Assembly (NCBI GenBank): GCA_001800245.1
Contig: MGVA01000043.1
Coordinates: 29,098-93,097 of the forward strand
DNA length: 64,000 nucleotides
Source of the DNA: Elusimicrobia bacterium RIFOXYA12_FULL_51_18
GTDB taxonomy: Bacteria > Elusimicrobiota > Elusimicrobia > Elusimicrobiales > UBA9959
Direction: 5' to 3'
Shown piece after piece: positions 15,152 to 64,000 of this stretch (positions are counted from its first letter, which is position 1; each line of letters opens with the position of its first letter). The notes beneath the pieces are model-generated. The model worked only from the letters and a program-made list of their open reading frames with translations. It was not told the origin of the DNA and made no database searches. Both the position numbers and the translations under genes were made by a program.

Positions 15152-15976
15152 TTACGGGAAAGGCGCGTAAACCAAGCGGTCCACGTTTATCGTTAGCAGG
15201 TCTTTTTCTGAGGCGTAGAATTTGTCGGGGAACTCAAGGAAGATAGTGTTGCCGCGGACCAGCAGTTTTTCCCTTATCGAAGGATGGGTTATCTCAAAGG
15301 AACTGATGAGGCATTCCCGTGCGCAAGTCACCCCGAGTGCCGATCCTTCCGGCGGCACATCGCGCATCCCGACCAGGCATGTGCGCGTGTTGGTCAGGTC
15401 CAGGTATGGGTAGTAAAGGGTTATCTTGAAGGTTCGCCGGTTGAACCCGTAAAACCTGCCACTGGCAAAATTAACCTTGGGGAAGATCCCGATAGTCGAT
15501 AATTCATAGCGTGTTATCCCGAGTTTGCTAAAAAATTCCAGAACCCTTCCATTGTGTACTTTAAAGCCATCCACGGCATCGTCAAAAACATTATTGCGGA
15601 GCAGCCGCCCGGCATTCAGCTTGAATGGCAGCCGGTTCCGTTTCGCCAGCTCAATGGCACCGAAGTCGTTTACGGTGATTTCGAGCCCCGCCGGATCTAT
15701 CTTTCCGCCCTTCACCAGCTTTAAAAGTCTTTTAAAAAGAGAGTTCAGCAATCTCGCGCCTTTTTCGCTCAGCAGCGGAGTCAGCAGGCAGATCTTTTTG
15801 CCTTGTCCCTGCAGCCAAGCGATTTCCGCGCAGACTGAGCCGTCAAGCAGGTTTTCGCAGAATTCAGGGCCCAGGTAAAATCGGGTAAATCCCCGCATCG
15901 CGGCTTCCAGCCCGCCGGATTTTTTGAGATCTGCGAGTGTCATCGTCCCGAGCCGTATTCCTTTTTCTATAGCCAT
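15152..15976 (-). CDS. U32-family protein, UbiV-like small subunit
   Basis: 274 aa. FYLGPEFCENLL, ICLLTPLLSE and VNDFGAIELAK parallel the YLGEAVC / VLSTLAL / SDLGVV blocks of E. coli UbiV as I remember them. It is paralogous to 48063-48881 and 49773-50660. Confidence 0.55.
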   Translation of the reverse strand: MAIEKGIRLGTMTLADLKKSGGLEAAMRGFTRFYLGPEFCENLLDGSVCAEIAWLQGQGKKICLLTPLLSEKGARLLNSLFKRLLKLVKGGKIDPAGLEITVNDFGAIELAKRNRLPFKLNAGRLLRNNVFDDAVDGFKVHNGRVLEFFSKLGITRYELSTIGIFPKVNFASGRFYGFNRRTFKITLYYPYLDLTNTRTCLVGMRDVPPEGSALGVTCARECLISSFEITHPSIREKLLVRGNTIFLEFPDKFYASEKDLLTINVDRLVYAPFP

Positions 15977-15978
15977 GG

Positions 15979-16926
15979 TTAAAAGCCGTCCTTGTTCCAG
16001 TGGGCCAGCTCTAGTATAAAAGCCTGGCTGGCTTTTGTCCGTGGCCTTGAGGAGGAAAGCTTTTCCGCCAAGCCTATCATGGCACGCAATTCGCCGACCT
16101 TTTTAACTTTCACTTCCTGTCTGTCGGAGCGCGTGCCATATTTCAGATACTGCACACCCGAAGCAAAGAAATCGAAAAAAGTCGCGGCATTTGAAAGTCT
16201 GGGAGAGCCTCTGCGGGTAAATCTGTTTTCAATTCGATTTATGATGCCGGGGAGTTCTCCAGCGCGGTTTGGTATGTCTAGGTTCCGGAGCTTTATCAGC
16301 CCGCCTGGTTTTGCGTTTATGTGGCAAAGACTGTCGTTGAGCATGGCCGATTTTAAAGTGAAATGGATGGGATGGTGCAGCTGGCAGCGACCGTTAACGT
16401 AGGCGCAGCCGAAAAATCGGTAATCGAAAATCTCGGTTTCAATGCTCCGTGTCCGGCAGAAGTAGAGGATTTTGCGTGCTTCATGCGATGAGATCTGGTT
16501 GGGGAGAATGATTCTGGAGATGTTGAAGCGCTGAAAAAAAGCCGCGCTCAGGCTGTTGAAGACCGGCTGTACCGAACTCAAGTGGAGTTCCGCGCGCAGG
16601 CGCTTCCTACCACCCGAGAATAATTCCAGCAGATATGGGTTTGAAAAAATAAAAGCGTCCACTCCCAGCTTATCCAGATCCCTTATCCGTCCAGTGATAG
16701 CGCCAAGCTGTTTGTCCGTAGCAGTGGCGTGGAGGTCATTGACCGCGAGCGATATTTTTTTCCCAAGCGCCTTGGTTTTTATTATGGCCGCCGCCAGATC
16801 CGTGCTGGGCAGATTTTTACTCCCGAAGGCCGGGAGCTCTCCGACCGCGGTGTAAAACTCATCTGCGCCGGCCTCTGCCAAAGGTTCCAGCTCTTTCAGA
16901 TCGGTAAAACATGAAACTATTTTCAT
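15979..16926 (-). CDS. U32-family protein, UbiU-like large subunit
   Basis: ORF 15979-17130 trimmed to ATG 16926 (MKIVSCFTDLKELEPLAEAGADEFYTAV...). This removes the overlap with the upstream rSAM gene and aligns with the MRITVGVKSLKEADYFLHNGADEI starts of 47222 and 48953. The Cys-rich motif is EIFDYRFFGCAYVNGRCQLHH. Confidence 0.55.
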   Translation of the reverse strand: MKIVSCFTDLKELEPLAEAGADEFYTAVGELPAFGSKNLPSTDLAAAIIKTKALGKKISLAVNDLHATATDKQLGAITGRIRDLDKLGVDAFIFSNPYLLELFSGGRKRLRAELHLSSVQPVFNSLSAAFFQRFNISRIILPNQISSHEARKILYFCRTRSIETEIFDYRFFGCAYVNGRCQLHHPIHFTLKSAMLNDSLCHINAKPGGLIKLRNLDIPNRAGELPGIINRIENRFTRRGSPRLSNAATFFDFFASGVQYLKYGTRSDRQEVKVKKVGELRAMIGLAEKLSSSRPRTKASQAFILELAHWNKDGF

Positions 16927-17012
16927 TGCTTGTGTAAGCTCCGTATCCGTAGCCAGACTCATCAGATGGCTATGTGCTTTTCTTTGGAAAACCGGCCTAT
17001 TGTCCGTGTTCC

Positions 17013-17939
17013 TTAAAATGCTTCGGGCCTTATGCTTCCCAGCTTTTTGCCGGAAGAGATCAATTCTTTGTTCCCGTGGATCTTCAAGTAATCTGTTCTC
17101 GCGCCACAGCATGCCGGTTCTAGTGGGCAACGCCCGCAGGCCGGGTTTTCCGCTTTTTCCATTATGCCGGCTTCCAGGACCTGGTCTCCCCTGCGCCAGC
17201 GCTGGAATTCAAAGGAGAATCCTTCAAAATTACGCAGCCGGCATAAGGGGATGTTTTGTACTACGGCTTTCACGCCTTTAATTTTGAGCTTTGCGAGTGC
17301 TAGCTTCAGGAAAGGCTCCGCATCGCGGTAGCGCGGGACGATGTCTTTGCTGTCGTTGACCCGGCCCGAGTTGCGCACGAAAGTGAAGTTGACAAATGCC
17401 AGTCCCGGATGATTTCTGATTACCCAGTCAGCGAAAAGCGGCAGGCTGCGGTAGTTCCCCTTGAAGATTATGTGGAAGAGTCGAAGTTTATGTTCCGCGC
17501 CCAGTGTTTTCAGGTTTTCAAGCCCTTTCACGGCCGAGGTGAACTTGACGCTGCGTGTGGCCTTCATGTAGGTTTCAGGATCTGTGGCCGGGAAATTGAC
17601 CGTGAAATAATCCACGGCTTTCTCTACCCTGCGGCAAAATTTAGGGTCCGCCAGCGCCACGGCGTTGGTGGACAGCATGAAGTTTCTCACCCCGGCTGTT
17701 TTCAGTGCCGCTATCCAGTCAAAAAAATCTCTGCTGACGGTAGGTTCGCCAGCGCCCTCAAGGCTTACCGCTTTAATGCGCTTTTTCTTTATTGCGGCGG
17801 TGGTTTCCACTTTTGATGCGGGTGCGCCGGTCGGTGGGTTTTGGCAATAGACGCAATAAAGGTTGCAGGTGTGTGCCATCGGTACACACAACTGCTCGTT
17901 TATCCACTTTTGTTCTTTTTTTGCTTCCTCTGGCGCCAT
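17013..17939 (-). CDS. radical SAM protein (short-form family with C-terminal CxxC...C...Y...G tail)
   Basis: 308 aa with CNLYCVYC, a GAGEPT SAM strand, and the C-terminal CGRCPLEPACCGARTDYLKIHG shared with 23567, 25660, 29756 and 43980. Confidence 0.8.
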   Translation of the reverse strand: MAPEEAKKEQKWINEQLCVPMAHTCNLYCVYCQNPPTGAPASKVETTAAIKKKRIKAVSLEGAGEPTVSRDFFDWIAALKTAGVRNFMLSTNAVALADPKFCRRVEKAVDYFTVNFPATDPETYMKATRSVKFTSAVKGLENLKTLGAEHKLRLFHIIFKGNYRSLPLFADWVIRNHPGLAFVNFTFVRNSGRVNDSKDIVPRYRDAEPFLKLALAKLKIKGVKAVVQNIPLCRLRNFEGFSFEFQRWRRGDQVLEAGIMEKAENPACGRCPLEPACCGARTDYLKIHGNKELISSGKKLGSIRPEAF

Positions 17940-18145: not shown

Positions 18146-18718
18146 ATGGAACTAATGTCTAAAGCAAAAGCGATGTTGTTGAACGCCATAATGGTTCTCT
18201 CGTTCGTTAATTTTGCGACCGCCGCCGGCCTTGGAAACAATCTGAAAACTGGTACCCCCGCCGCTGAACTGCTTGCGTCTCTGATGCCCTCCCTGGATTT
18301 CCTGGAAACTATTACGGTTCGGAAAGTGGAAGCCGCTCCGGCCATCTTTAAAAGTGACAAACTTATCGCGCCCGGCCGCGATCTCGCGCCGAAAGTAGAA
18401 GATCCCCTCCGCGTAAAAGCCATTCTTAAGCTGGTTGGAGATATTTATAACAGTGTTCATCTGCCCTATGCGCAGGATGGGGCAACTTTTAAGAATAAGG
18501 AGCGTAAGTTGCCCGTTCAGCCGATCGGTTTTTATAAAGAATACACGCTCCTCACAGGCGGCGCTCCTCATACGGTGGTTATTGACGGACAAACTTACCA
18601 GGTGGCTCCGGATCTGAGCGCCCGCGGTTCCGAGCGCTGTATTATAGGCGGCGGGACTAAATTGTATTACACCCCGGACCATTACGCGCATTTCATTGAA
18701 TTGACCGTGGTGCGGTGA
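18146..18718 (+). CDS. secreted guanyl-specific ribonuclease, barnase/RNase Sa (N1/T1) family
   Basis: 190 aa. The signal peptide is MLLNAIMVLSFVNFATAAG. The C-terminal catalytic domain is FYKEYTLL...RGSERCIIGGGTKLYYTPDHYAHF, which fits the YxEY...RG..R...YYT.DHY pattern of the family. Confidence 0.8.
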   Translation: MELMSKAKAMLLNAIMVLSFVNFATAAGLGNNLKTGTPAAELLASLMPSLDFLETITVRKVEAAPAIFKSDKLIAPGRDLAPKVEDPLRVKAILKLVGDIYNSVHLPYAQDGATFKNKERKLPVQPIGFYKEYTLLTGGAPHTVVIDGQTYQVAPDLSARGSERCIIGGGTKLYYTPDHYAHFIELTVVR

Positions 18719-19122
18719 TGCGGTCTCTGTCTGGATTTCTTGACAGTAAGGAAGTTTTCCTGAAATCGGATATAACGGATATGAATGCGGAGGAAATAGA
18801 AAAGCTATTTCCTCCGCTTGGTTTTTTTGCATTCCGTCTGGACGGAGCCGGCGTTAAAAGCAAGGGGGAACTGCTGGGTGTGCTTGCCGCCGGCCTTAAA
18901 TTCCCCGCCTATTTCGGTTACAATTGGGACGCCCTGCTGGACTGCCTGCGGTCCTTGCCCGATTTTATCCAGGCCCGCGGCTACGTCCTGATAATAGAGC
19001 GGTTCGACCTCTTTATGAAAGATTCTCCGGCCGACCTTGAGGATTTTAGGGATATCGCTGAGACAGCCGCCGGATTCCTTGCGGAAAAATACAAGCTCCC
19101 GTTTAAGATAATAACGCTATGA
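18715..19122 (+). CDS. barstar-family ribonuclease inhibitor
   Basis: 135 aa with a 4-nt overlap onto the RNase gene. FPAYFGYNWDALLDCLRSL matches the barstar motif (P.YYG.N.DALWDCL). Confidence 0.75.
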   Translation: MMRSLSGFLDSKEVFLKSDITDMNAEEIEKLFPPLGFFAFRLDGAGVKSKGELLGVLAAGLKFPAYFGYNWDALLDCLRSLPDFIQARGYVLIIERFDLFMKDSPADLEDFRDIAETAAGFLAEKYKLPFKIITL

Positions 19123-19904
19123 AGCTGATGAAACTCGCTCTCTTAGCGTTTTTTGTATTTTCATTCTGCGTGCCTGCCTCCGCCGGCGGTCTGTCTGTGG
19201 ATAATCCGCGCATTAAAATTGCCCGGCGGGCAGGCAAGCCGGTCCGGTTTAAGACTTCGGATGGCTGCGCTTTGGAAGCTTTTTATCAGCCCGCTTCTTC
19301 AGGCTCATATGTGTTTGTGAATGTTCATGGCCTGGGCTCCAGCGGCGGTGAGTGGACGGTTTTGGAAGCCGGATTAAGAAAAAGAGGTTATGGCTATCTT
19401 TCTATCGATCTCCGAGGGCATGGAAAGAGCCTGGAGTGCGGGGGTAAACCGGTTAATTATAAAACTTTTTCCGCAGTTCAATGGGTCGGGCTTTCCGCGG
19501 ATATACTGGCCGCGGCGGAATTCCTTAAAGGCAGAAAGGTTCCATCCAGTCGTCTGGTGCTGTGCGGCGCCAGCATCGGGGCCAATCTCTCCCTTAAGAC
19601 CGTAGCGGAGGGGTTGCGTCCCGCAGGCATTGTTCTCCTGTCCCCGGGCATGTCATACGCCGGAATAGAGCCTGGTTTTTTTTTAGACGAACTGGTCGCC
19701 ATCCCGTTGCTGCTGGCCGCGTCGAAGGACGATCCTTATGCCTGGGATAGCGCCGGCGCTTTGGCTGCGCGTGCGAAGTTCAAAAATATCCCGGTCATTT
19801 TCAGAGCTGGTCCCGGCGGCCACGGCGCAAACATGCTTTCTGAAACCCGGGCAGAACTTCTTAATGATATTCTTAACTGGGCGGATAAGCTCCGCGTAAA
19901 ATAA
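19119..19904 (+). CDS. secreted alpha/beta-fold hydrolase
   Basis: 261 aa with a signal peptide (LALLAFFVFSFCVPASA), HGLGSSGGEW, DLRGHGKS, the nucleophile elbow GASIG, and a C-terminal GGHG. Confidence 0.7.
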   Translation: MKLMKLALLAFFVFSFCVPASAGGLSVDNPRIKIARRAGKPVRFKTSDGCALEAFYQPASSGSYVFVNVHGLGSSGGEWTVLEAGLRKRGYGYLSIDLRGHGKSLECGGKPVNYKTFSAVQWVGLSADILAAAEFLKGRKVPSSRLVLCGASIGANLSLKTVAEGLRPAGIVLLSPGMSYAGIEPGFFLDELVAIPLLLAASKDDPYAWDSAGALAARAKFKNIPVIFRAGPGGHGANMLSETRAELLNDILNWADKLRVK

Positions 19905-19930: not shown

Positions 19931-20486
19931 CGGGGGAACCTTATCCGATTCATTTCCGTGCGCCGGCTTTATGTTTCGGTAAGACAAGCCTTAGTTTCCC
20001 GTTCCTCCTTCCTGGTCCCCGCCGCCATCAATAACCCGTTCTTAACGCTTACCTTGAGGATTTTTCTCAAACCCCGGGTTCTTTAACGACGATCTCAAGG
20101 GCCGAGCCTTTGTCTGCCGTCGTAATTCCGGCAGTTTTTAGATTCCACCCGATGGAAAGACGGTGAAGAAAGCATCATCATACGATATCACCAGGCTGGT
20201 TGCCGGGTCCCTGATAATACATCACATATAATTGGCAATCAGAAGTTAGGATTGCTTATCATGGATTTGTTTATACTCTAGACCTTCATTATGACATTGA
20301 AAAACACGCTTTTATGTATTAGACTATAACTGCTGAGTTCCAGAATACATGGTCTGGCAATTATGGTTTTTCAAAAAATGACCTATTGGGCATCAAGGTC
20401 GGGGAACCCTTAGGATTGTGTCCGCCTGGCTAGATCCTGCTAAAGGGGCGCCGATTCCCTGTAAGGGGTGCCGCCAAGGGGGTTTT

Positions 20487-21200
20487 ATGGATAACGAGAA
20501 TATAGTAACCCTGCAGCTACAATTTACCAGGAGGAAAGCATTCCTCCTTTTGACGTTTTTTTTCATCTGTTGGCATCCCGGCTTCCTGGGGTCTGAAACC
20601 TTAACCTTAACCACGTATTATCCGGCGCCCTACGGTGGCTACGCCAGTCTTCTTACCACCGGTCAGACCCTTCTAGCCAGGGATGGAGGCAACGTCGGAA
20701 TCGGGACTCCCAGCCCCGGATACAAGCTTACCGTGCGGGGCGGCATAGGCGGCAATTACGGTCTCACTCCGAATTATACTACTTGGGCTAGTTATTCAGT
20801 AGGTGACGGAGGCGCCGCTGTCTATAATGATGCCAACGCGTATAAAACCTTAATGTTAGTGGGGAACAATTCGGCCGGCGGAGTTCGCAAGGTAGGGGTT
20901 TGGGATGATTTCACCGTTAACGGCAATTCATATGTTTCAGGAAGTATGACCGTTAACGGCAACCTGAGCGTTAACGGTGTGATCACAGGCATGTGCCAGT
21001 TACGCCCCTATGCCCAAACCGGCACGACCTCTTGTCTCAGGGCGGATGAAAGGGTTATCACATGGTATGGAGACGGGAACCCGGATTCCGGCATGCTTCT
21101 TCGCGCGGTGGGGCTTGATATAACAAATGCTCAGGCGTGGAGGATGGTGGGGTTGGCCGCCGACCGCGCCGGGAATATGTTGTGCTGCAGGATACAATAG
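20487..21200 (+). CDS. hypothetical membrane-anchored Gly/Thr-rich protein
   Basis: ORF 20418-21200 trimmed to ATG 20487, preceded by an AAGGGGG RBS. It has an N-terminal hydrophobic helix AFLLLTFFFICW, then TLTTYYPAPYGGY...GNVGIGTPSPGYKLTV, Gly/Asn-rich repeats and a C-terminal Cys cluster. I recognise no family. Confidence 0.5.
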   Translation: MDNENIVTLQLQFTRRKAFLLLTFFFICWHPGFLGSETLTLTTYYPAPYGGYASLLTTGQTLLARDGGNVGIGTPSPGYKLTVRGGIGGNYGLTPNYTTWASYSVGDGGAAVYNDANAYKTLMLVGNNSAGGVRKVGVWDDFTVNGNSYVSGSMTVNGNLSVNGVITGMCQLRPYAQTGTTSCLRADERVITWYGDGNPDSGMLLRAVGLDITNAQAWRMVGLAADRAGNMLCCRIQ

Positions 21201-21284
21201 GGCCCTCCTGCAATACTTGCGGGAATTCCGTATTAAGGACAGCGGCTTTATCTCCCGGAAGGGAGCCGCCTAAAGGAGAGGAAC

Positions 21285-21767
21285 TTGAAAAAGCAGGAAA
21301 ATAAAACGATCGCTGTCAGGGCCAGCCTTAAGGATCAGAACCTTGATGTGGTCCGTTATGCCGCGTACGCCGTGAGCGACGCGGCGTATGTTTTTATAAA
21401 ACCGGCCGGCAAGCGCGCTGTGGCGCTTGAGTTTACTCCAAAAAGTGCCGCCGCGGCAAAAGACCTGCTCCGGCGCTTTAAGGAGGAGCTGGCGGATGAA
21501 CAAAAGCGCGCAGCCATTTTTGCCTCGAACCGTGACTTGAGGGAATTCATGATCCTGAAAGCGCTCGCGTACGAAGAAATTCCTCCCTCAGGACAGCGGG
21601 AAGATTCCGGCCTCACGCCGGAACAGGAGCGCGAACTGGACGCTTTGATAGCGCAGGTTGAAAGCGAGATAAAGAAGGAATCATTCGGGAAAAAGGTTAA
21701 AGACCCGCTTGGCATTACCAGGACATGGGAAGAAAAATATGGCGCAAAAACAGGCCGCAAAAAATAA
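21285..21767 (+). CDS. HxsD-like small protein with acidic C-terminal extension
   Basis: TTG start preceded by a strong RBS aaaggagag. 160 aa. It is paralogous by eye to 23193-23483 (VRYAAYAVSDAAYVFI vs VKLAAFVFSDKADIRI; ...ELADEQKR...ILKAL vs ...EVLNQQCR...VTKAL). It sits directly upstream of an HxsB-like gene. Confidence 0.4.
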   Translation: MKKQENKTIAVRASLKDQNLDVVRYAAYAVSDAAYVFIKPAGKRAVALEFTPKSAAAAKDLLRRFKEELADEQKRAAIFASNRDLREFMILKALAYEEIPPSGQREDSGLTPEQERELDALIAQVESEIKKESFGKKVKDPLGITRTWEEKYGAKTGRKK

Positions 21768-23193: not shown

Positions 23194-23483
23194 TGAAGAC
23201 GAATAAAGGCGCGAAGGAAATATTTCTAGACGCCGGGATTTATTCCGGCGAAGCCGTAAAGCTGGCGGCTTTTGTGTTTTCCGACAAGGCGGATATACGG
23301 ATCGTTCCGGGCAAAAACGTTTTTAAAATCTCGGTACGCGCGGAAAACGCCGAGCGCGCGGCCGGAGAGTTCCTGAACGAGGTTCTGAACCAGCAGTGCA
23401 GGATAGACCTCGCGAAGAAAAATTCCAAAATAGCCGGCATTATAGTAACAAAGGCGCTTTTGTCCGCTGCCGGTGAAAAATAG
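23193..23483 (+). CDS. HxsD-like small protein
   Basis: ORF 23178-23483 trimmed to ATG 23193 (TAATG overlap with the HxsB-like stop). 97 aa. FLNEVLNQQ resembles the LLNDYxLRE motif that names the HxsD family (from memory). Confidence 0.5.
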   Translation: MKTNKGAKEIFLDAGIYSGEAVKLAAFVFSDKADIRIVPGKNVFKISVRAENAERAAGEFLNEVLNQQCRIDLAKKNSKIAGIIVTKALLSAAGEK

Positions 23484-23566
23484 TTCCTTTCCAAAAATCG
23501 TGCTTCCCCGGCGGCCCGTGGCAAAGGTCATCAATGACCGTGATTTTCTGTTAAGCGGGTCATAGC

Positions 23567-25644: not shown

Positions 25645-25659
25645 TAAAAATCAGGGATA

Positions 25660-27776: not shown

Positions 27777-27809
27777 GAGCCGAGACCGTCTGATTTAAAG
27801 GAGAACAGG

Positions 27810-29741: not shown

Positions 29742-29755
29742 AAGAGACTCCTATT

Positions 29756-33344: not shown

Positions 33345-33370
33345 ACTTTAGAAACGCCAGGAGATAAAAA

Positions 33371-38313: not shown

Positions 38314-38625
38314 GTGAAAAAGAAAACATCCAAAATAAAAAAGAATATCAAACTGTTCTTCTCAAGCGAAGAAGGGAAGATGCTGGACTCCGATATCGTG
38401 AAGACCGGTCTGGCGCTGGGGATTCTCGGTGCGGCTATGGTGGATCAGGCTAATGCGGAGAACATACATTCCAACTACTTTACTTCGACCTCCCATGTCA
38501 GCCACCAGAGCCACGGTTCGCACGGTTCGCACGGTTCGCACGGCTCCCACTCGTCCCACGGTTCGCACGGTTCGCACGGCTCGCACGGTTCGCACGGTTC
38601 GCACGGTTCGCACGGGTCTTATTGA
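38314..38625 (+). CDS. hxsA: His-Xaa-Ser repeat peptide, HxsA-like candidate precursor
   Basis: 103 codons from GTG 38314 (GGGGGA 5-6 nt upstream), with an alternative ATG at 38380. The C-terminus is S-HVS-HQS-(HGS)4-HSS-(HGS)7-Y-stop. The N-terminal part contains KTGLALGILGAAMVDQANA, a signal-like segment. It is surrounded by HxsB/HxsD-like genes. Confidence 0.7.
   Translation: MKKKTSKIKKNIKLFFSSEEGKMLDSDIVKTGLALGILGAAMVDQANAENIHSNYFTSTSHVSHQSHGSHGSHGSHGSHSSHGSHGSHGSHGSHGSHGSHGSY
38494..38619 (+). repeat. 14 x 9-bp in-frame tandem repeat (consensus cacggttcg = His-Gly-Ser)
   Basis: Read directly as cat gtc agc / cac cag agc / cac ggt tcg x3 / cac ggc tcc / cac tcg tcc / cac ggt tcg x2 / cac ggc tcg / cac ggt tcg x3 / cac ggg tct. 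Confidence 0.95.
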
Positions 38626-48881: not shown

Positions 48882-48952
48882 ACGATTTTTGGCCCGGAAT
48901 ATTTAAATATCCATAAAAGCCAAACTCCGGACGGATATGCCAACCCCTTATT

Positions 48953-52765: not shown

Positions 52766-52813
52766 AGCGTACGATTCTCAAAAAGCTTTAGTATAAATTG
52801 TTATCCTATCAAT

Positions 52814-54334: not shown

Positions 54335-54344
54335 GATGGTGTTG

Positions 54345-56655: not shown

Positions 56656-58104
56656 ATGAATGTAAAACTTGACTTGTTATTAGTGGTGGCGCACCCCCCG
56701 GCGACGGCAAAGTTTTTAACATGGTCGTCGGGAGTCACGCATCCTTTAGGGGCCGCATATATAGCGGGCTATGTTCGGGAAAAAGGTTTTACGGTTGAAA
56801 TCCTTGATAATGCGATAGAGGGATTGAGCCTTAATGCTTTTCGTGACTATGTGAGAGCTAGAATGCCGCGGTGTGTGGGGTTCAGCACTTTTACGAATTC
56901 CATTCGGAATTCATTCCTTTTGGCTGAAGCGGTAAAAGATGTCAATGAGAATATTCTTGTGATCATGGGGGGGGCTCATGCCTCCGCGTTGCCGCATGAT
57001 ACGTTAAAGCGGGCATGCGTGGATATAGTGGTAAAAGGCGAGGGAGAAATTACGACGCATGAATTACTTCAGGCCGTCAAAAACGGAACTGGGTTTGAGG
57101 GGATTTATGGGGTTTGGTATAAAAAAGCGGGACATATCGTTGAAAATCCGGATCGCGAATTGATCCCGGATTTGAACATTCTCCCCATGCCCGCGTATGA
57201 CCTTTTGCCAATGAAGAAGTATTATCTGCCGGCCTCGCGGAGGATGGGGAAAGGATATACGGGGTCTGTTATGACGGGCCGGGGATGCCCGTATCATTGT
57301 ACCTTTTGCAGCCGAAGTGTTTTTGGCGCGAAATTGCGGTTGAGGAAGCCGGAAAAAGTGGTTGAAGAAATGATGCTTTTGGCCGGACAGTATCACGTTG
57401 AGGAATTTCTGATCTGGGATGATGTGTTCACTATCGATAAAGAACGCGCTATCGAAATGTGCCGATTGATGCGCAAAAACAGACTCAATATCGTCTGGAG
57501 CTGCAGCAGCCGCGGCGATTGCGCGTCGGATGATCTGTTCCGGGAGCTTTCCCTGGCCGGTTGCCGTGAAATATTGTTGGGCGCTGAGTCCGGGTCTCAA
57601 AAGATACTGGACCATCTGCGGAAGGATATCACAGTGGCGCAGATCGAGGAAGCCGTGCGCTTATGTAAGAAGAACAATATGCTGGCGTTTTGCACGTTTG
57701 TGCTGGGATCATTCGGTGAGACGGAAGAAACGTTGCGGGAAACACTGAAATTTGTAAAACAGCTTGATCCCAATTATGCGATTTTTTGCGTTCTGGCGCC
57801 ATTGCCCGGTTCGAAATTATTTTCAGAGGCTGTTGCGGACGGGAGGGTCGATCTTGCCGCGGTAAACTGGGATCATTACGTGAGTCTGCTGTCCACTGTC
57901 CCGCCTCCGATAAAAACAAGTGCGATGAGTAAAGAGGAAATTGTTCGGTGGCAGAAAAAAATTTTCAGGGAATTTTATTTGCGGCCCGCTTATATTTTCC
58001 GGCATATCCGGAATCTGCGTTCATGGGGACATGTTTGTGAAACGTTGCGCGGGTTCAGCGCCCTGATGGGGCATCAACTGCATCAGAATTTTAAATCTAA
58101 ATAG
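56656..58104 (+). CDS. B12-binding-domain radical SAM protein (class-B type), tandem array member 1
   Basis: 482 aa with GAAYIAGYVREKGF, GGAHASALP, VVKGEGE, LPMPAYDLLP, GRGCPYHCTFC and LGAESGSQ. Confidence 0.85.
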   Translation: MNVKLDLLLVVAHPPATAKFLTWSSGVTHPLGAAYIAGYVREKGFTVEILDNAIEGLSLNAFRDYVRARMPRCVGFSTFTNSIRNSFLLAEAVKDVNENILVIMGGAHASALPHDTLKRACVDIVVKGEGEITTHELLQAVKNGTGFEGIYGVWYKKAGHIVENPDRELIPDLNILPMPAYDLLPMKKYYLPASRRMGKGYTGSVMTGRGCPYHCTFCSRSVFGAKLRLRKPEKVVEEMMLLAGQYHVEEFLIWDDVFTIDKERAIEMCRLMRKNRLNIVWSCSSRGDCASDDLFRELSLAGCREILLGAESGSQKILDHLRKDITVAQIEEAVRLCKKNNMLAFCTFVLGSFGETEETLRETLKFVKQLDPNYAIFCVLAPLPGSKLFSEAVADGRVDLAAVNWDHYVSLLSTVPPPIKTSAMSKEEIVRWQKKIFREFYLRPAYIFRHIRNLRSWGHVCETLRGFSALMGHQLHQNFKSK

Positions 58105-58117
58105 TAGTGAGTCCGTT

Positions 58118-59581
58118 ATGATGGCCGCATATCAAGAACGCCTCGACGTCTTATTTGTCGTCCCTCGAAATCCATCCACATTCGATATCGTTTCCGGCGC
58201 ATATACTGTGACCGCGCCATTGGGCGTTGCATATGTCGCCGGATATCTGAGAGAGAAAAAATATCGCGTCGCGATTATCGATGATAATATTGAAAGGGCG
58301 ACTAAAGAGGGCTTCAAGGAGTATCTGAAAAAGTGTAAGCCGCGATTCGTCGGATTTAGTGTTCTAACGCCTTCGGTCGACAATGCCGTAGCTTTTGCCG
58401 AGATCGTAAAAGACACCGTTCGCGACACGAAAATCTTTGCCGGGGGAGCGCATGCCTCGGCGTTGCCGGAAGACCTGTTAAAACACCCATGTTTTGATGT
58501 GGTGGTTAAGGGCGAGGGAGAGGTGACGGCGCTGGAATTGATCGAATCGCTTGATGCCGGAGAAAGTTTGGAAAATGTCCGCGGGATCGTGTATCGGAAG
58601 GAAGCGCGGTGCATAGAAAATGCGGATCGCCCATTCATCGCCGATCTCGATGCGTTGCCGATGCCTGCTTATGATTTGCTTCCAATGGAGAAATATTTTG
58701 TTTCATCTACAAGGAAGCTTGCGGCCGGGCGCGCCGGGTCAATCATCACGAGCCGCGGTTGTTCTTATCAATGTAGTTTTTGCAGCCAATCGGTTTTTAG
58801 AAGAGAGGTCCGCTATCGAAGCCCGGGCAGCGTTTTAAAAGAAATACGGTATTTAAGCGATATTTACGGCATTTCCGAATTCGTCATCTGGGACGATACG
58901 TTTACAACAAATGAAAGGCATGCCGTGGAGATCAGCAAGGGGGTTAAAGCGATTAAACGGGATCTGGTCTGGAGTTGCTATTCGCGGGTGGAACAGGCTT
59001 CGGATCGAATGTATCAGGCGTTGTATGATGGTGGGTGCCGTGAATTATCATTCGGCGCGGAATCGGGATCGCAGATGATCCTGGATTCGATCTGTAAAAA
59101 TGTAAAAGTGGAAGATATTGAGAAGGCTGTGCAATGCTGTAAGAGAAATGGTTTAAAGTCGTTCTGTTGTTTTGTATTCGGTTTTCCGGGTGAGACTGCG
59201 GAGACGATACAAAAAACAATTCAGTTCGCAATAACCATAGACCCCGATTTTGTTTCTTTTTGCATATTTACGCCGTTGCCCGGATCTAAATTGTTTTCCG
59301 ATGCGGTTCAAAGGGGGCTGATAAATCTCGATCATGTTGAATGGAGCCGGTTCATGTGCCTGATGTCGACATGTCCGCCGCCGGTAAATATGAGCGGGAT
59401 AAGCAGCGCGGATTTGATTTTATCGCAGAAAAAGGCGTTTATGAAGTTCTATTTCCGTCCAAAATATATTTTCCTGAGGCTTTTCCAGCTAAAGACAAAA
59501 GATTCAATATATCAGCTATGGCGAGGATGCCGAACCATACTGAAGTATCTTAATTACAGGGTAACCACGCAAGATGAATAA
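58118..59581 (+). CDS. B12-binding-domain radical SAM protein, tandem array member 2
   Basis: 487 aa, colinear with member 1 (GGAHASALP, VVKGEGE, LPMPAYDLLP, SRGCSYQCSFC, FGAESGSQ). Confidence 0.85.
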   Translation: MMAAYQERLDVLFVVPRNPSTFDIVSGAYTVTAPLGVAYVAGYLREKKYRVAIIDDNIERATKEGFKEYLKKCKPRFVGFSVLTPSVDNAVAFAEIVKDTVRDTKIFAGGAHASALPEDLLKHPCFDVVVKGEGEVTALELIESLDAGESLENVRGIVYRKEARCIENADRPFIADLDALPMPAYDLLPMEKYFVSSTRKLAAGRAGSIITSRGCSYQCSFCSQSVFRREVRYRSPGSVLKEIRYLSDIYGISEFVIWDDTFTTNERHAVEISKGVKAIKRDLVWSCYSRVEQASDRMYQALYDGGCRELSFGAESGSQMILDSICKNVKVEDIEKAVQCCKRNGLKSFCCFVFGFPGETAETIQKTIQFAITIDPDFVSFCIFTPLPGSKLFSDAVQRGLINLDHVEWSRFMCLMSTCPPPVNMSGISSADLILSQKKAFMKFYFRPKYIFLRLFQLKTKDSIYQLWRGCRTILKYLNYRVTTQDE

Positions 59582-61010
59582 AAGCGATATCCTTTTGGTT
59601 TCTCCCGCCCCGCAATCGGAAGTGGGATTGCTTTACAGGCTTTCCGGTATAGTGCATCCTCTTGGTTTAGGATATCTCGCTAGCTATCTTCGCAAAAACG
59701 AATATATCGTGGACCTTATCGATAATTCTGTCGCGCGCTTGAGTGAGAAGCAATTCGGGGAATATTTAGAAATTTCAAAACCGCGGTATGTCGGTTTTAG
59801 TTTTTATACGGGATGTCTTGCCAACGCCCATGATCTGGCGCGGGTTGTAAAGAAGGTGGATAGCCGGATTATTGTTGTTGCGGGAGGGCCTCATGCTTCT
59901 GCGCTTCCCGGAGATGTTTTCCGAAATGATGCCATTGATGTCGTTGTTCGTGGAGAAGGAGAGGAAACATTGTTGTCGCTTCTCATTGCGATGGACTCGA
60001 AGTCCGGCCTTGAGACTGTTGAAGGAATTAGTTATAGACGGGGTTCGGAAATAATGCACAATCGGCCGCGTGATCTGATAAAGGATATTAATGCCTTGCC
60101 GGTTCCGTCGTACGATCTTTTCGACATTGATAAATATTTTTTGGCGCCTTCCAGAAGATTTACGGGCGGAAAGGCGGGCTCGGTCATTACCAGCCGGGGA
60201 TGCCCTCAACGGTGCGCTTTTTGCAGTCGCGCGGTTTTCGGGCGGAGTATCCGATATCGCACCCCGGAAAACGTTGTTAATGAAATTGAAAACCTGGTTG
60301 GGAAGTACGGCTTCACGGAATTTGAAATCAGAGATGATACATTTACTTTGGATGAAGACCGGGCGATCGCCATATGTGATTTGATCAAGGCGCGGAAGAT
60401 CAGGATTTTATGGAACTGCTGCGGCCGGGTAAATCAGATTTCCGACAAATTATTGAGCTCCCTTTACGCCGCCGGATGCCGCGCGGTGTTTATCGGCGCG
60501 GAATTCGGTTCTCAAAAGATGCTGGATTTAATGAAAAAAGATATTACCCTGGAACAAATTGAGACGGCGATTATGCAGTGTAAAAAACACAAGCTATTAT
60601 CGCTGACCAGCTTTATCATAGGCGCCCCCGGTGAAACGGAGGAAACAGTGCGGGAAACGATTTTGTTCGCGAAAAGAATAGATCCGGACTATGTTTCTTT
60701 TTGCGCCTATACCCCGCTGCCTGGGTCCGAACTGTTCGATGAATTTGTTGCGAAAGGACAAATTGACATCGAAAACATGAATTGGGAAGATTGTGTGCGA
60801 TTATTATTGGTGCCGCCGCCGTATCAAATCGGCAATTTTCCACCCAGGGAGCTTGTTAAATGGCAAAAAAAAGCCCTTAGAGAATTTTACCTGCGGCCTC
60901 GATATATTTTAAAACGACTGGCACGGCTCAGAACAATTCAGGGCGCTCTTTCCGCTTTTGCGGGCCTGCATGTCGTGGTCGGGCATCAATTAAAGCGCTT
61001 TAAATTTTAA
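59574..61010 (+). CDS. B12-binding-domain radical SAM protein, tandem array member 3
   Basis: 478 aa with an 8-nt overlap onto member 2. Blocks are GGPHASALP, VVRGEGE, LPVPSYDLF, SRGCPQRCAFC and IGAEFGSQ. Confidence 0.85.
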   Translation: MNKSDILLVSPAPQSEVGLLYRLSGIVHPLGLGYLASYLRKNEYIVDLIDNSVARLSEKQFGEYLEISKPRYVGFSFYTGCLANAHDLARVVKKVDSRIIVVAGGPHASALPGDVFRNDAIDVVVRGEGEETLLSLLIAMDSKSGLETVEGISYRRGSEIMHNRPRDLIKDINALPVPSYDLFDIDKYFLAPSRRFTGGKAGSVITSRGCPQRCAFCSRAVFGRSIRYRTPENVVNEIENLVGKYGFTEFEIRDDTFTLDEDRAIAICDLIKARKIRILWNCCGRVNQISDKLLSSLYAAGCRAVFIGAEFGSQKMLDLMKKDITLEQIETAIMQCKKHKLLSLTSFIIGAPGETEETVRETILFAKRIDPDYVSFCAYTPLPGSELFDEFVAKGQIDIENMNWEDCVRLLLVPPPYQIGNFPPRELVKWQKKALREFYLRPRYILKRLARLRTIQGALSAFAGLHVVVGHQLKRFKF

Positions 61011-61060
61011 ATGATACAATTTGGGGAAAGAAATGATCGGCAGGTTCTAAAAAAATAACA

Positions 61061-62455
61061 ATGAAAATAGTACTGATTAAACCTCATTCTTCGGCTATAA
61101 GTCCTCAAATTGTTCCTCCTTTGGGACTAATGTATTTGTCCGCGGTGCTGAAAAGAGCAGGGTACAAAGACGTGTCTCTTATTCACATGGATGCCGATGA
61201 CTTAAATGAGGCGGAGATAGCGGCTAAAGTTATTGCACTAAACCCTGATCTTGTTGGCCTTAGTTCAATAACATCAGAATCTTATTGTATGTATGCCCTG
61301 GCCAAGAAAATAAAAAATATCCTCAATAATGTTTGCGTTATTGCGGGTGGGCCGCATCCGACCGCGTATGTTGAAGATTGCTTGAAAAATGATGCTATTG
61401 ATATTGTGGTGAAAGGGGAAGGTGAGGAAACTTTATTGGAAATTGTGCGAACCATCGAAAAAAAAGAGCCGCTTGGCATGATCAAGGGGATAAGTTATAA
61501 AGAGAATGGCGGGATCTTGCATAATCCCCCCCGTGAATATGTTGCTGATATCGATCAACTCCCTTATCCGGATTGGGGCGCTGTTAATATCGATGCATAT
61601 AAACGATTTATCCCTCAATCGCCATTTATGTATCAGCGTAAATATATGACCATTTTTACGTCGCGGGGATGTCCGTTTCATTGCACGTATTGTCATAATG
61701 TCATGGGGAAATCATTCCGGGCTCATTCGGTAAATAGGGTTTTTGATGAAGTATCTTATTTGCATAATAAGTACGGTATTCGCCATGTAGCCATCATTGA
61801 CGACATATTCAATTGGGATAGAACCAGATCGTTGGCAATCATGCAAAGAATAGCGGATAGTGAGATGAAACTCGCTATACATTTTGCTAATGGGATAAAA
61901 GGAGACCTTTTAGATGAAGAACAAATAAAAATCTTTGCTAAAGCCGGGCTTTCTTTTACATGTGTGGCTGTCGAAACCGGGAGCATGCGCTTGCAGAAAA
62001 AGATTAAAAAAGGAATCGATTTCCCAAAGATACGAGAAAATATCGCTCTCCTCTCAAAACACAGGATTTTTGTTAATGGCTATTTTATTATAGGGTTTCC
62101 CGGAGAAACTTTTAAAGAAGTGTTGTTAACGATTTGGTTCGCCTGCACTTCAAAACTGCATACGGCCAGTTTTTTTGTCTATCATGCTTACAAAGGGACC
62201 GAGCTTGGGGATGATTTAAGCGGAGAGATCGTGAGCAAGGTGCAGAATTCCGCGAGCAGTTATACTACGTCGAGTGATTTCGTGAACTGTTCCTCATTAT
62301 CAAAAAGTGCCATTGTATTCCTGCGGCAATTTGCGAATATTTGTTTTTATGGTAATCCTGTCCGCGTATTTAGAATTTTGAGAGATTTGCCTGATTATGG
62401 GGCTTTTTATATCTTACTGAAAAAACTTATCCACCGGACAATATTCTTAAAATAA
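61061..62455 (+). CDS. B12-binding-domain radical SAM protein, tandem array member 4 (second subfamily)
   Basis: 464 aa with PPLGLMYLSAVLKRAGY, GGPHPTAY, VVKGEGE, SRGCPFHCTYC and VAVETGS. The gene is AT-richer than the rest of the island. Confidence 0.8.
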   Translation: MKIVLIKPHSSAISPQIVPPLGLMYLSAVLKRAGYKDVSLIHMDADDLNEAEIAAKVIALNPDLVGLSSITSESYCMYALAKKIKNILNNVCVIAGGPHPTAYVEDCLKNDAIDIVVKGEGEETLLEIVRTIEKKEPLGMIKGISYKENGGILHNPPREYVADIDQLPYPDWGAVNIDAYKRFIPQSPFMYQRKYMTIFTSRGCPFHCTYCHNVMGKSFRAHSVNRVFDEVSYLHNKYGIRHVAIIDDIFNWDRTRSLAIMQRIADSEMKLAIHFANGIKGDLLDEEQIKIFAKAGLSFTCVAVETGSMRLQKKIKKGIDFPKIRENIALLSKHRIFVNGYFIIGFPGETFKEVLLTIWFACTSKLHTASFFVYHAYKGTELGDDLSGEIVSKVQNSASSYTTSSDFVNCSSLSKSAIVFLRQFANICFYGNPVRVFRILRDLPDYGAFYILLKKLIHRTIFLK

Positions 62456-62478
62456 CCGTTTCAAGTAAAGAAAAGAAC

Positions 62479-63870
62479 ATGAGAATTTTATTAGTTAAAC
62501 CCCAATCCACAGTTTTTCATAGCATTGCTGTTCCGCCATTAGGGCTTCAATATCTGTCGGCAGTTGTAAAGGCGGCCGGTTATCAAAATGTGAAAATTGT
62601 TCATATGGATGCGCAAAGGATAGATGCTGACGATTGGGAGAATGAGGTACGGGCATTTCACCCGGATATTGTCGGGTTGAGTGTTATTGTGTCGGAGGCT
62701 GTATCGATGGATGCGGTGGCCGTGCGAACAAAAAAAAATGCGCCTCGATGTCTGGTGGTTGCGGGAGGCGCATACCCCTCGTTATTTCCTGAAAAATGTC
62801 TGAAAAACTCCGCCATTGATCTTGTTGTAAGGGGTGAGGGGGAAAAAACATTTCTTGAAATAGTGAAATGCTTTGAACAAGGGCTGTCGTTTGACGAGAT
62901 TAAAGGGGTGGCTTTTCGAGGCAAGGATGCTGTTTGTTATGCCCCACAACGTGAATTTTGTCATCGTCTTGATGATATTCCTCCCCCGGATTATGAAGGA
63001 CTGGATTTGGATTTGTATAACAATTTAATCCCGCAAAGTCCGCTTTTATTTAAACAGAAGCATGTCCGCGTCCTTACATCAAGAGGGTGCCCATATCAGT
63101 GCGGTTTTTGCTTCCCAACCATGGGACGGGTATTCCGCCCGCATTCTGCCGATCGCGTTATTGGGGAAATATTGAGGCTTTGTGAAAGACGGCAGACTCG
63201 CAATGTGGAAATAATAGATGATGTTTTTAATTTCGATCGTGAACGAGCGATGGAGATAATGCGAAAGATAGTCAAAGCTGACCGGGGCTTGAAAATTTAT
63301 TTTCCAAGCGGGGTGAGAGGGGATCTTTTGGATAGAGAAATGATTGATCTGTTTAAAACGGCGGGGGTGGTGTTTATGCCGGTTGGGATTGAAACGGCCA
63401 GTAAGCGAAAGCAGGTGGAAATTGGAAAAAACATGGATCTTGACCGTCTTCAAATAAATATCGCTTATGCGGTTAAAAAACGAATGTTCATGAATGGGTA
63501 TTTTATTTTAGGGCTTCCCGGAGAAACGATCCGCGAGGTGCTGAGGACTGTTTTTTTTGCATGTGAATTGAAACTGCACACAGCAAGTTTTTTTGCTCTG
63601 CATTGTTATGAGGGATCGGAGTTTGCGAAGGTTGCGGATGCCCGGAAAGTCATAACAGCTCAATCCGCTTACAGCCTGTTTTCCGCCCCGATCCATTTTA
63701 TTAACGCTTCTTCTCTTAATAAAGGTGTTATTGTTTTTCTGCGGCAGCTTGCAAACGTTATGTTCTATTGTAATCCATTTCGGCTGCTTAGAATCATAAA
63801 AGATTTGCCGGAAAAGCGGTGCTTGGTTTTTTTAGCGAAGCAATTTCTCAAACGGGTCGTTTCTTTTTGA
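62479..63870 (+). CDS. B12-binding-domain radical SAM protein, tandem array member 5 (second subfamily)
   Basis: 463 aa, colinear with member 4 (PPLGLQYLSAVVKAAGY, GGAYPSLFP, VVRGEGE, SRGCPYQCGFC, VGIETAS). Confidence 0.8.
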   Translation: MRILLVKPQSTVFHSIAVPPLGLQYLSAVVKAAGYQNVKIVHMDAQRIDADDWENEVRAFHPDIVGLSVIVSEAVSMDAVAVRTKKNAPRCLVVAGGAYPSLFPEKCLKNSAIDLVVRGEGEKTFLEIVKCFEQGLSFDEIKGVAFRGKDAVCYAPQREFCHRLDDIPPPDYEGLDLDLYNNLIPQSPLLFKQKHVRVLTSRGCPYQCGFCFPTMGRVFRPHSADRVIGEILRLCERRQTRNVEIIDDVFNFDRERAMEIMRKIVKADRGLKIYFPSGVRGDLLDREMIDLFKTAGVVFMPVGIETASKRKQVEIGKNMDLDRLQINIAYAVKKRMFMNGYFILGLPGETIREVLRTVFFACELKLHTASFFALHCYEGSEFAKVADARKVITAQSAYSLFSAPIHFINASSLNKGVIVFLRQLANVMFYCNPFRLLRIIKDLPEKRCLVFLAKQFLKRVVSF

Positions 63871-63877
63871 TCGCAAG

Positions 63878-64000
63878 ATGAATAAAAGTATCCTCGAATG
63901 TCCGATTTGTAAATCGGATGATTGCCGGAAAAACCATCTTTGCCGGGATATGGTCATCTATCGATGTGGTTCCTGTGGGATGATGTTCCAGAACCCGTCT
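63878..64000 (+). CDS. 5' end of a gene encoding an N-terminal Cys4 zinc-ribbon (start typical of some class I SAM methyltransferases); runs off the window
   Basis: Own translation from ATG 63878 gives MNKSILECPICKSDDCRKNHLCRDMVIYRCGSCGMMFQNPS, a CPxC...CxxC ribbon. Only 41 codons are visible, so the function is a guess. Confidence 0.35.
   Translation, partial: MNKSILECPICKSDDCRKNHLCRDMVIYRCGSCGMMFQNPS

Follow-up and report, generated by a model that had tools for sequence, protein, structure and literature searches.

The question addressed here is what a locus carrying 21 radical S-adenosylmethionine (rSAM) genes makes, and whether these genes serve one product or several. The locus occupies the part from position 15152 onwards of a 64,000-nucleotide stretch of DNA, hereafter the window, from the uncultivated Elusimicrobia bacterium RIFOXYA12_FULL_51_18 (assembly GCA_001800245.1, contig MGVA01000043.1, positions 29,098 to 93,097). 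An earlier note, made from the sequence alone, had described it as an rSAM island assembled around a His-Gly-Ser repeat peptide, that is, a peptide of the His-Xaa-Ser (HxS) type. The HXS system HxsD-HxsB-HxsC-HxsA of E. coli and Klebsiella is an antiphage system (Li et al., Nat Commun 2026, PMC13128918). The answer favoured here, with a probability of roughly 60%, is that the locus is an enlarged, composite HxsA4-type HXS maturation island yielding a heavily modified, exported repeat protein. The enlarged HXS island is a lineage-specific, conserved feature of groundwater Elusimicrobia.

The repeat peptide and its neighbours

The central gene is a short open reading frame (ORF) at 38314-38625, which lies in the following group.

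34640-36070, + strand: HxsB2 (TIGR03978, 457 bits against a cut-off of 370)
36156-36887, + strand: TP_methylase-fold methyltransferase (PF00590, 49.7 bits)
37218-38300, + strand: sec360, with an N-terminal transmembrane (TM) helix, a disordered linker and an all-alpha Cys-rich domain (no Pfam match)
38314-38625, + strand: HxsA4, 103 amino acids (aa) (NF038313, 68.6 bits against a cut-off of 55)

The HxsA4 protein consists of a Lys-rich leader containing FFSSEEGK, a hydrophobic helix, the sequence ANA and 14 HxS repeats ending in GSY, the 14 consecutive units occupying residues 61-102. It is the sole HxS ORF in the window and its repeat DNA, a 9-bp unit present in 11.6 copies (38512-38615), is the sole coding tandem repeat. 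Further matches were obtained with the NCBIfam HxsA4/HxsA3 repeat models, weakly with a collagen-like adhesin model and, below threshold, with a Pfam collagen repeat; the canonical HxsA model gave no match in 38314-38625. The leader, with an invariant FLxSEEGK-type motif, is conserved in at least 20 homologues, archaeal ones included, and the homologues share the hydrophobic helix and an AxA site while carrying 5-27 HxS repeats. As HxsA4 and both HxsB proteins pass their NCBIfam cut-offs, the placing of the His-Gly-Ser peptide at the centre of the island, and its relation to HxsA-D, were upheld.

Orthologues of HxsB2 (55-69% identity) precede sec360 and HxsA4 in four related loci (L005, L073, L074 and L075; L numbers denote individual loci or contigs throughout), from all of which the TP_methylase gene is absent. 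The sec360 gene is found immediately upstream of HxsA4 in about 20 loci, and its homologues share ten invariant cysteines. An AlphaFold2 model of sec360 (predicted local distance difference test score 82, predicted template-modelling score 0.73) comprises an N-terminal membrane helix and an all-alpha domain, for which a comparison with the PDB returned no fold match at E < 1. In L076 (67% GC), two tandem HxsA4 copies were found at 7221-9006, each followed by a paralogous secreted protein of 182-185 aa; these proteins occupy the place of sec360.

The Hxs core

The upstream part of the island begins with a separate trio, termed block A, and continues in a core on the opposite strand.

15152-15976, - strand: U32 partner ORF (block A)
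15979-17130, - strand: U32 protein with weak UbiU/TrhP-like matches (block A; PF01136, 47.9 bits; the real start is probably later)
17013-17939, - strand: HxsC-like rSAM (block A; PF04055, 45.2 bits; best match HxsC, below cut-off)
20418-21200, + strand: unk260, apparently secreted (motif GSEtLtLTTYYPAPYGGY, C-terminal CC; no Pfam match)
21285-21767, + strand: HxsD-like protein 1 (TIGR03976, 38.3 bits against a cut-off of 50; no Pfam match)
21709 or 21739 to 23193, + strand: HxsB1 (TIGR03978, 476 bits against a cut-off of 370)
23178-23483, + strand: HxsD-like protein 2 (TIGR03976, 42.3 bits against a cut-off of 50; no Pfam match)
23567-24490, + strand: HxsC-like rSAM (TIGR03977, 171 bits against a cut-off of 268)
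24487-25644, + strand: polytopic membrane protein, N-terminal half A24 prepilin-peptidase-like (PF01478, 17.3 bits against a cut-off of 26.5)
25660-26586, + strand: HxsC/HxsC4-like rSAM (best match HxsC4)
26583-27776, + strand: HxsC/HxsC4-like rSAM (NCBIfam best match, sub-threshold)
27810-29741, + strand: TPR protein (above the Pfam cut-off)
29756-30604, + strand: HxsC/HxsC4-like rSAM (NCBIfam best match, sub-threshold)
30403-31851, + strand: SufS-like cysteine desulfurase, Aminotran_5 (TIGR01979, 282 bits against 475; the start is probably later)

The two HxsD-like ORFs sit where they would be expected, flanking HxsB, and the order D-B-D-C is kept in more than 30 related loci. The order from 25660 to 31851 is likewise kept across Elusimicrobia loci, ending at an M20 peptidase gene, and the block A trio, whose U32 protein and rSAM have UbiU and HxsC as their respective best NCBIfam matches (both sub-threshold), is kept beside phoH in many Elusimicrobia loci, for example L013, L014, L020, L023 and L031. 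The protein at 20418-21200 always lies directly upstream of the first HxsD and has 32 homologues in related loci, often in 2-3 tandem copies; its membership in the system is uncertain.

The A24-like protein always adjoins HxsC, even in the shuffled locus L072. The Pfam match by which the earlier note's A24-like peptidase could be recognised stayed below its cut-off, whereas the motifs vV..D.A...IpN (D23) and WPAGDAKFF (AGD) are at least 95% conserved in 23 homologues. We take these two aspartate motifs to be the catalytic signature of a GxGD protease. From its sequence and position the protein is proposed as the candidate HxsA4 leader peptidase, and the earlier statement that no classical leader protease is present became doubtful, since this conserved candidate follows HxsC.

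The radical-SAM complement

The count of 21 rSAM ORFs held: all 21 contain CxxxCxxC at the starts first listed, all score above the PF04055 gathering cut-off of 29.5 bits (35.9-88.3 bits), and together they make up 47% of the island genes (21 of 45 plausible genes, 15152-63870), the "nearly half" of the earlier note. The genes lie close together in blocks of alternating strand and often overlap, four of the overlaps being of the ATGA type that had been remarked upon. The ORF starting at 63878, from which it had been concluded that the island was incompletely captured, encodes the beginning of a class-I SAM methyltransferase, and the island does continue on L001, a matching Joint Genome Institute (JGI) contig. 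Two further rSAM genes lie there just beyond the window end, giving 23 in ~55 kb, of which ten are of the Hxs family (2 HxsB and 8 HxsC-like) and 13 are others. To our knowledge the island is among the densest rSAM loci.

A chimeric contig, which had been named as a result that would undermine the description, was ruled out. JGI contig C687J26609_1000039 and an NCBI metagenome-assembled genome (MAG) show the same gene order, as do strain-variant contigs whose proteins are 87-99% identical; the JGI contigs represent two samples. Because independent assemblies keep the same order, the island is not chimeric.

The rSAM genes were assigned to paralogue groups by scans against NCBIfam (17 window rSAMs) and Pfam (all 21; those at 58118, 59574, 61061 and 62479 against Pfam only). 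The two HxsB proteins, of the SPASM type, are 52% identical to each other. Seven short rSAMs (starts 17013, 23567, 25660, 26583, 29756, 42779 and 43980) have a C-terminal CxxCx5C tail, and all have HxsC or HxsC4 as best NCBIfam match, below cut-off: against HxsC (TIGR03977, cut-off 267.9) the protein at 23567-24490 scored 171 bits and six other window paralogues 63-96 bits, and for those at 25660 and 43980 the best match was HxsC4 (NF038332), with 119 and 131 bits against a cut-off of 500. The ORFs at 54345 and 55562 form a divergent pair (34% identical). A B12-binding domain (PF02310, 52-86 bits) was detected in six rSAMs, at 52814, 56656, 58118, 59574, 61061 and 62479, each of which has the class-B arrangement of an N-terminal B12-binding domain and an rSAM core; among those scanned against NCBIfam, no class-B subfamily cut-off was reached. 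In the rSAM at 45110 the Pfam scan did not detect PF02310, while its rSAM half resembles class-B enzymes. The grouping proposed earlier was therefore largely right (two HxsB, seven with a CxxC tail, a divergent pair), the B12-domain proteins being six rather than seven.

For the non-Hxs rSAMs the matches were to generic SPASM/twitch or class-B families only, with scores that fall far short of every cut-off. Ordinary housekeeping families, the other identity that would have overturned the description, were rejected for the 17 rSAMs scanned, none of which reaches the cut-off for MoaA, BioB, HemN, PqqE, AhbD or NirJ (best MoaA score ~74 bits against a cut-off of 284-325). Expansion of the paralogues in situ, as had been supposed, was also rejected, because the paralogues are only 33-62% identical and each tested copy has its own orthologue in other genomes, as with five tandem B12 genes that have one-to-one counterparts in L067.

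Candidate tailoring genes downstream of HxsA4

The second half of the island consists of the following genes.

38659-39819, + strand: GT28-like (MurG-family) glycosyltransferase (Glyco_tran_28_C, PF04101, 28.3 bits)
39804-40772, + strand: rSAM rS322 (PF04055, 82.9 bits)
40759-41544, - strand: DUF2334/Polysacc_deac_1 deacetylase-like protein (block D; above the Pfam cut-off)
41466-42794, - strand: rSAM, 442 aa (block D)
42779-43927, - strand: HxsC-like rSAM, 382 aa (block D)
43980-44903, - strand: HxsC-like rSAM, 307 aa (block D; best match HxsC4)
45110-46876, - strand: class-B-like rSAM, 588 aa (B12_588; block D), with no detectable B12 domain
47222-50660, + strand: two U32/partner-ORF pairs in tandem (PF01136, 32.5 and 22.1 bits; cut-off 22.4)
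50758-55382, - strand: block F, comprising an rSAM of 351 aa, a DegT aminotransferase, a B12-rSAM of 506 aa and a SPASM-like rSAM of 345 aa
55562-64000, + strand: block G, comprising a SPASM rSAM of 348 aa (55562), five tandem B12-rSAMs and the start of a SAM methyltransferase (63878)
56656, 58118, 59574, 61061 and 62479, + strand: starts of the five tandem B12-rSAMs

Beyond the window end, L001 encodes a protein with ~10 TM helices, a B12-rSAM, an amine oxidase and an rSAM of 299 aa, which is 50% identical to the HxsC-like protein at 23567 and represents a second HxsC. An identity of the 10-TM protein as a PMT/GT-C enzyme was considered and rejected: it has no Pfam match, nor does a profile comparison relate it to the PMT protein of L077, and the analogy is one of position only. 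Of the accessory genes listed in the earlier note, the three U32 genes with partners, SufS-like, TP_methylase, Glyco_tran_28_C, DUF2334, DegT and TPR were confirmed by the Pfam scans, one U32 protein falling just short of its cut-off.

The GT28 gene follows HxsA4 in L005, L029, L070 and L073-L075, and has 53 homologues among 5.8 billion proteins; those with a taxon name are all from Elusimicrobia, most being without one. The order of block D is kept in L073, L074 and L075. Its 588-aa rSAM is the best-conserved enzyme of the island (73-77% identity in L073-L076) and has a 260-residue N-terminal part without a Pfam match, which may be a degenerate or new cofactor-binding domain. The two U32 pairs are 62% identical to each other, with UbiU as best NCBIfam match, far below cut-off; their orthologues are found in L073, in L074 and within the L030 Hxs block. 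By analogy with the U32 family members UbiU/UbiV, the pairs are inferred to be oxygen-independent hydroxylases. The neighbours of the 351-aa rSAM and DegT genes are GT28 and HxsA4 in L076; on the P0127 contig the two genes come after U32 genes.

Related loci in other genomes

Species-representative genomes were scanned with HxsB2, which yielded 56 loci, and the ORFs of each were matched to the window genes. Nearly all loci are from Elusimicrobia MAGs, with a few from Schekmanbacteria, Gracilibacteria, Aenigmatarchaeota and Woesearchaeota. The common order runs lpxD, skp, bamA, phoH, [U32 partner, U32, rSAM], barnase, barstar, unk260 in its first half, and HxsD, HxsB, HxsD, (sec360 + HxsA4, or a C4-like rSAM), HxsC, A24, C4-like, rS397, rS282, SufS, M20 in its second. 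Since related loci of at most 21 kb hold 1-8 rSAM genes each, loci of the Hxs type with multiple rSAMs are the rule in the phylum and the window is the extreme case. Outside Elusimicrobia, HxsB was found in Aenigmatarchaeota, Woesearchaeota, Gracilibacteria and Schekmanbacteria MAGs (L047, L050, L052 and L039); L047 and L039 also carry HxsA4-like peptides with the conserved leader, and L039 several tandem HxsC4-like rSAMs.

The families of every strand block of the island recur beside HxsA4 or HxsB elsewhere, in differing orders (L070, L072-L076 and the P0127 contig). L073, L074 and L075 share blocks C-E as a collinear series (33-91% identity) that runs HxsB2, sec360, HxsA4, GT28, rS322, deacetylase, rS442, rS382, C4-like, B12_588, U32 pairs. 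L070 has HxsA4, GT28, rS322, deacetylase, rS442, amine oxidase, rS348, rS345, B12_506 and B12_56k, and L076 has HxsD, HxsB, two HxsA4, GT28, rS351, DegT, B12_588, a membrane protein, several B12 genes and rS348. In L072, HxsC and A24 adjoin the amine oxidase gene, a B12 gene adjoins GT28, and U32 genes are present too; L030 has a U32 pair inside its Hxs block, and on the P0127 contig families of the far end again lie near Hxs genes. In the simpler loci L012, L015, L025, L048 and L049, B12-rSAM and amine-oxidase genes follow HxsA4. A largely single, peptide-centred system is favoured because these families recur around HxsA4 in varying orders.

The extent of the insertion that enlarged the island was indicated by a ygeW-type operon (M20 peptidase, knotted carbamoyltransferase YgeW, carbamate-kinase-like protein, PGA hydrolase and PALP). 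In the window M20 and YgeW (32157-34579; YgeW 674 bits against a cut-off of 453) are contiguous with HxsB2 and form part of an interrupted ygeW operon, the rest of which lies at 18057-21170 on L001, so that it is split by an island of ~36 kb. In L011, HxsD, HxsB, HxsD, M20, YgeW, AAkin (carbamate-kinase-like), PGAhyd and PALP are contiguous; because the same operon is uninterrupted there, the 36-kb stretch that begins with HxsB2 and ends with the second HxsC is read as a single insertion.

The cobalamin block and the case for separate pathways

A number of observations weigh against the favoured explanation. The core rS348-rS345-B12_506-B12_56k (window 52.8-58.1 kb) is also found in L067, L069, L077 and L078, which have 35-40% GC and are Omnitrophota-like, and within the ~10 kb of flank examined in these four no HxS or SEEGK-leader ORF was present. 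The core adjoins GT2, Wzy_C, GT1 and GT4 glycan genes in L078. The GC content at third codon positions (GC3) is 0.39-0.53 over 56.6-66 kb, as compared with 0.51-0.75 in other island genes (most 0.55-0.66); that of the housekeeping flank is 0.61-0.72. The HxsC and HxsD candidates score below the curated cut-offs, no peptidoglycan-binding domain was detected in HxsA4 in the Pfam and NCBIfam scans, and its repeats are HGS and not rich in basic residues. PADLOC 2023 contained no matching model and returned only generic viperin-like rSAM similarity. Finally, the locus occupies a fixed core-genome site beside lpx and bamA, kept across the 56 related loci, and this conserved position makes it unlike a recently acquired mobile element.

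Several of these points bear on the explanation that two or more independent pathways share a variable hot spot, namely an Hxs peptide system at ~15-47 kb and a horizontally acquired cobalamin-rSAM module from ~50.7 to ~69.2 kb (window-equivalent coordinates) that would tailor a glycan or lipid, perhaps a methylated amino sugar or an envelope polysaccharide, and would have no chemical tie to HxsA4. In L067, L069, L077 and L078 the B12 core stands alone, together with extra B12 genes, a methyltransferase and a multi-TM protein, and the glycan setting of L078 is matched in L077, where the core lies beside a PMT-type GT-C, a deacetylase, GDSL proteins and a GT2. The nearest NCBIfam families, all far below cut-off, are a ladderane-lipid rSAM, HpnJ and BchE, none of them peptide enzymes. 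A second precursor peptide is also lacking from the window, whose intergenic gaps hold no other repeat or small conserved ORF. Against a division of this kind, L070, L072, L076 and the P0127 contig have the same families intermingled with HxsA4, HxsB, HxsC and GT28 in varied orders. The island also ends in a second HxsC, the 36 kb behave as one insertion by comparison with L011, and B12-rSAM and amine-oxidase genes follow HxsA4 in the five simpler loci named above. Separate pathways were held to be rather unlikely.

The composite nature of the island was nevertheless retained. The low-GC3 stretch corresponds to 56656-64000 of the window and 11400-13824 of L001, and comprises the five tandem B12-rSAMs, the methyltransferase and the 10-TM protein; the five B12 genes have one-to-one orthologues with 60-75% identity in the 40%-GC contig L067. 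From the drop in GC3 and these orthologues, the cobalamin block from ~56.6 to ~66 kb (window-equivalent on L001) looks horizontally acquired as a whole array, and its core is probably an acquired accessory module. On the strength of such sequence comparisons the block is regarded as a portable accessory module that would have been captured repeatedly by Hxs clusters. Since the core occurs without Hxs genes, its target may be a sugar or lipid-linked donor and not the peptide itself. A metagenome scan with the B12 gene at 61061 returned eight loci with little flanking context. The earlier note had left the choice between one heavily tailored product and several fused pathways; comparative genomics favours the former to the extent of a largely single, peptide-centred system, and the part that survives of the latter is a composite island with a portable B12 core.

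Nitrogenase-like genes and the cofactor alternative

Nitrogenase-like genes of Group VI type were found directly beside HxsB2-sec360-HxsA4 in three sister loci (L072 338-4142, L073 1-3168 and L075 1-1322). All three encode a NifH-NifD fusion of 841-849 aa, and L072 and L073 also a NifK-like protein; tblastn searches with the nitrogenase-like proteins of L072 and L073 found nothing in the window. This adjacency raises the alternative that the island makes a small-molecule cofactor, either of tetrapyrrole type for the Group VI nitrogenase-like enzymes or derived from the HxS repeats in the manner of mycofactocin or pyrroloquinoline quinone (PQQ). The window does encode a TP_methylase-fold enzyme, AhbD/NirJ/BchE-like rSAMs and a glycosyltransferase, and an amine oxidase lies downstream on L001; the set of rSAM, amine oxidase and glycosyltransferase parallels MftC, MftD and MftF of the mycofactocin cluster.

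According to Meheust et al. (2020, bioRxiv 10.1101/765248), Group VI nitrogenase paralogues in Elusimicrobia are accompanied by up to 13 adjacent rSAM genes, some with B12 domains, and a tetrapyrrole cofactor was proposed for these rSAM-flanked paralogues; a 2026 review still lists the function of the Group VI nitrogenase-like proteins as unknown. The same preprint reports that most of these genomes lack uroporphyrinogen synthesis, which counts against a tetrapyrrole product (Meheust et al., bioRxiv 10.1101/765248). So do the tetrapyrrole-family scores, which are far below cut-off (for example AhbD, 130-134 bits against 500), the absence of TP_methylase from sister loci and that of any nitrogenase-like gene from the window. 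HxsA4, moreover, has an export-type hydrophobic segment, and E. coli HxsA is itself the effector (PMC13128918). A cofactor as the product was held to be improbable.

The proximity of the nitrogenase-like genes to the island in the three sister loci nonetheless suggests, at the level of gene neighbourhood, that the published Group VI rSAM suite and the Hxs island are the same neighbourhood; in the literature, no paper was found tying the HxS island to that suite. A stronger proposal, put forward at long odds, is that the Group VI rSAM suite is the HxsA4 island and not a tetrapyrrole pathway, with ~20 rSAMs, U32 proteins, cobalamin methylases, a flavin oxidase and glycosylation enzymes turning the repeat protein into an imidazole-rich polymer or a multi-copy peptide-derived cofactor, which would be reduced by the nitrogenase-like enzymes where these are present.

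Flanking and unrelated genes

Upstream of the island, positions 1 to 12.6 kb of the window encode lpxB, an lpxI-like gene, lpxA, fabZ, lpxC, lpxD, bamA and a PhoH2-like protein. Between phoH and the island, at 12923-14665 (- strand), lies a 580-aa ORF without an NCBIfam match at E <= 1e-10. A barnase-like gene, a barstar gene and an alpha/beta hydrolase gene at 18146-19904 are neighbours that are conserved as well, and nothing evident connects them with the system; the first two (PF00545 and PF01337, 18146-19122) overlap by 4 bases, and most of the related loci from Elusimicrobia keep this pair between the U32/rSAM trio and the Hxs core. Five genes inside the island coordinates (barnase, barstar, hydrolase, M20 and YgeW) are outside the system. 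An Rfam scan of the window found no riboswitch or other RNA family.

Proposed maturation route

Under the favoured reading, an enlarged HxsA4-type island, a route can be drawn by reference to E. coli, where N-terminal processing requires HxsB, HxsC and HxsD together and a +8 Da modification is found in an HxS motif of the mature protein (PMC13128918). Following the E. coli scheme, HxsB and HxsC-HxsD pairs would act on HxsA4 in the cytoplasm, with the additional HxsC paralogues working on further repeats or further steps. The U32 heterodimers would hydroxylate without oxygen, the cobalamin rSAMs and the two methyltransferases would methylate, and GT28, DegT and the deacetylase might build or attach an amino sugar, while SufS would supply sulfur to the many Fe-S clusters. 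The A24-type protease would then cut off the leader at the membrane, and the repeat array would be displayed outside the cytoplasm, next to sec360.

The most likely role, and the least certain step of the proposal, would by analogy with HXS lie at the level of the envelope, for example in keeping phage DNA from entering. Mature HxsA of E. coli is periplasmic, is thought to be anchored to peptidoglycan via its peptidoglycan-binding domain, and stops phage DNA entry (PMC13128918).

The function of HXS was assigned only in 2026, and the island would represent a far larger, phylum-wide relative outside Pseudomonadota. It offers 'extra-step' paralogues, a candidate dedicated leader protease of the A24 type and a conserved extracytoplasmic partner, sec360. 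A link between an HxS precursor and the Group VI rSAM suite would provide a concrete alternative for the open question of the role of that suite. The island also suggests that peptide-maturation clusters can grow by capturing a portable cobalamin-rSAM module common to Omnitrophota-like genomes.

Comparison with known systems

The earlier note knew of no described system with this composition; that statement did not stand, as the NCBIfam HxsA4/HxsC4 models, the 2026 work on HXS antiphage defence and the 2020 Elusimicrobia rSAM suite all exist. The island peptide passes the cut-off of NCBIfam HxsA4 (NF038313), and HxsC4 (NF038332, labelled 'rare') is the best match for two island genes, far below its cut-off; both models cover single proteins without an attached function, and not a large island.

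With the two-gene pairs of UbiU/UbiV, TrhP and RlhA the island shares the association of a U32 protein and a partner, the best matches being UbiU and TrhP. Its scores are 31-47 bits against cut-offs of 440-534, however, the partner ORFs have no Pfam match, and there is no quinone or RNA context.

The Group VI suite of Meheust et al. has in common with the island the phylum, the groundwater habitat and many rSAMs, including B12-fused ones. The window has no nitrogenase-like gene, and the passages of that preprint that were consulted propose a tetrapyrrole cofactor and make no mention of an HxS peptide.

The mycofactocin and PQQ clusters and the polytheonamide proteusins share with the island a precursor, a SPASM rSAM, a small partner, a peptidase, a flavin oxidase, a glycosyltransferase and methyltransferases or class-B rSAMs. 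No membership in the mycofactocin or PQQ families was detected, the MftC and PqqE scores lying far below cut-off; compared with all three, the number of rSAMs in the island is several-fold higher, and its precursor carries an export segment and a long tripeptide repeat.

The HXS system itself is among the closest counterparts. Shared features are an HxS-repeat protein with an N-terminal export segment, a SPASM rSAM HxsB above the equivalog cut-off, and an HxsC-like rSAM with small HxsD-like partners in the local order D-B-(D)-C; HxsC and HxsD of the island are below the curated HXS-family cut-offs. Of known HXS systems, 99.7% are in Pseudomonadota and 99.6% have the compact four-gene order (PMC13128918), whereas the island holds a core-genome position in Elusimicrobia and is not a compact cassette: its D-B-D-C genes lie at 21285-24490 and HxsA4 at 38314, among more than 40 genes, so that HxsA4 is 14 kb from HxsC and beside a second HxsB. 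The HXS effector has a peptidoglycan-binding domain, none being detected in the island HxsA4 with its 103 aa and 14 HGS repeats. Where HXS has two rSAMs, the island has ten of the Hxs family, and to these it adds more than 30 extra genes, among them the candidate A24-type protease, sec360, the U32 pairs, the B12-rSAMs, the glycosyltransferase and DegT.

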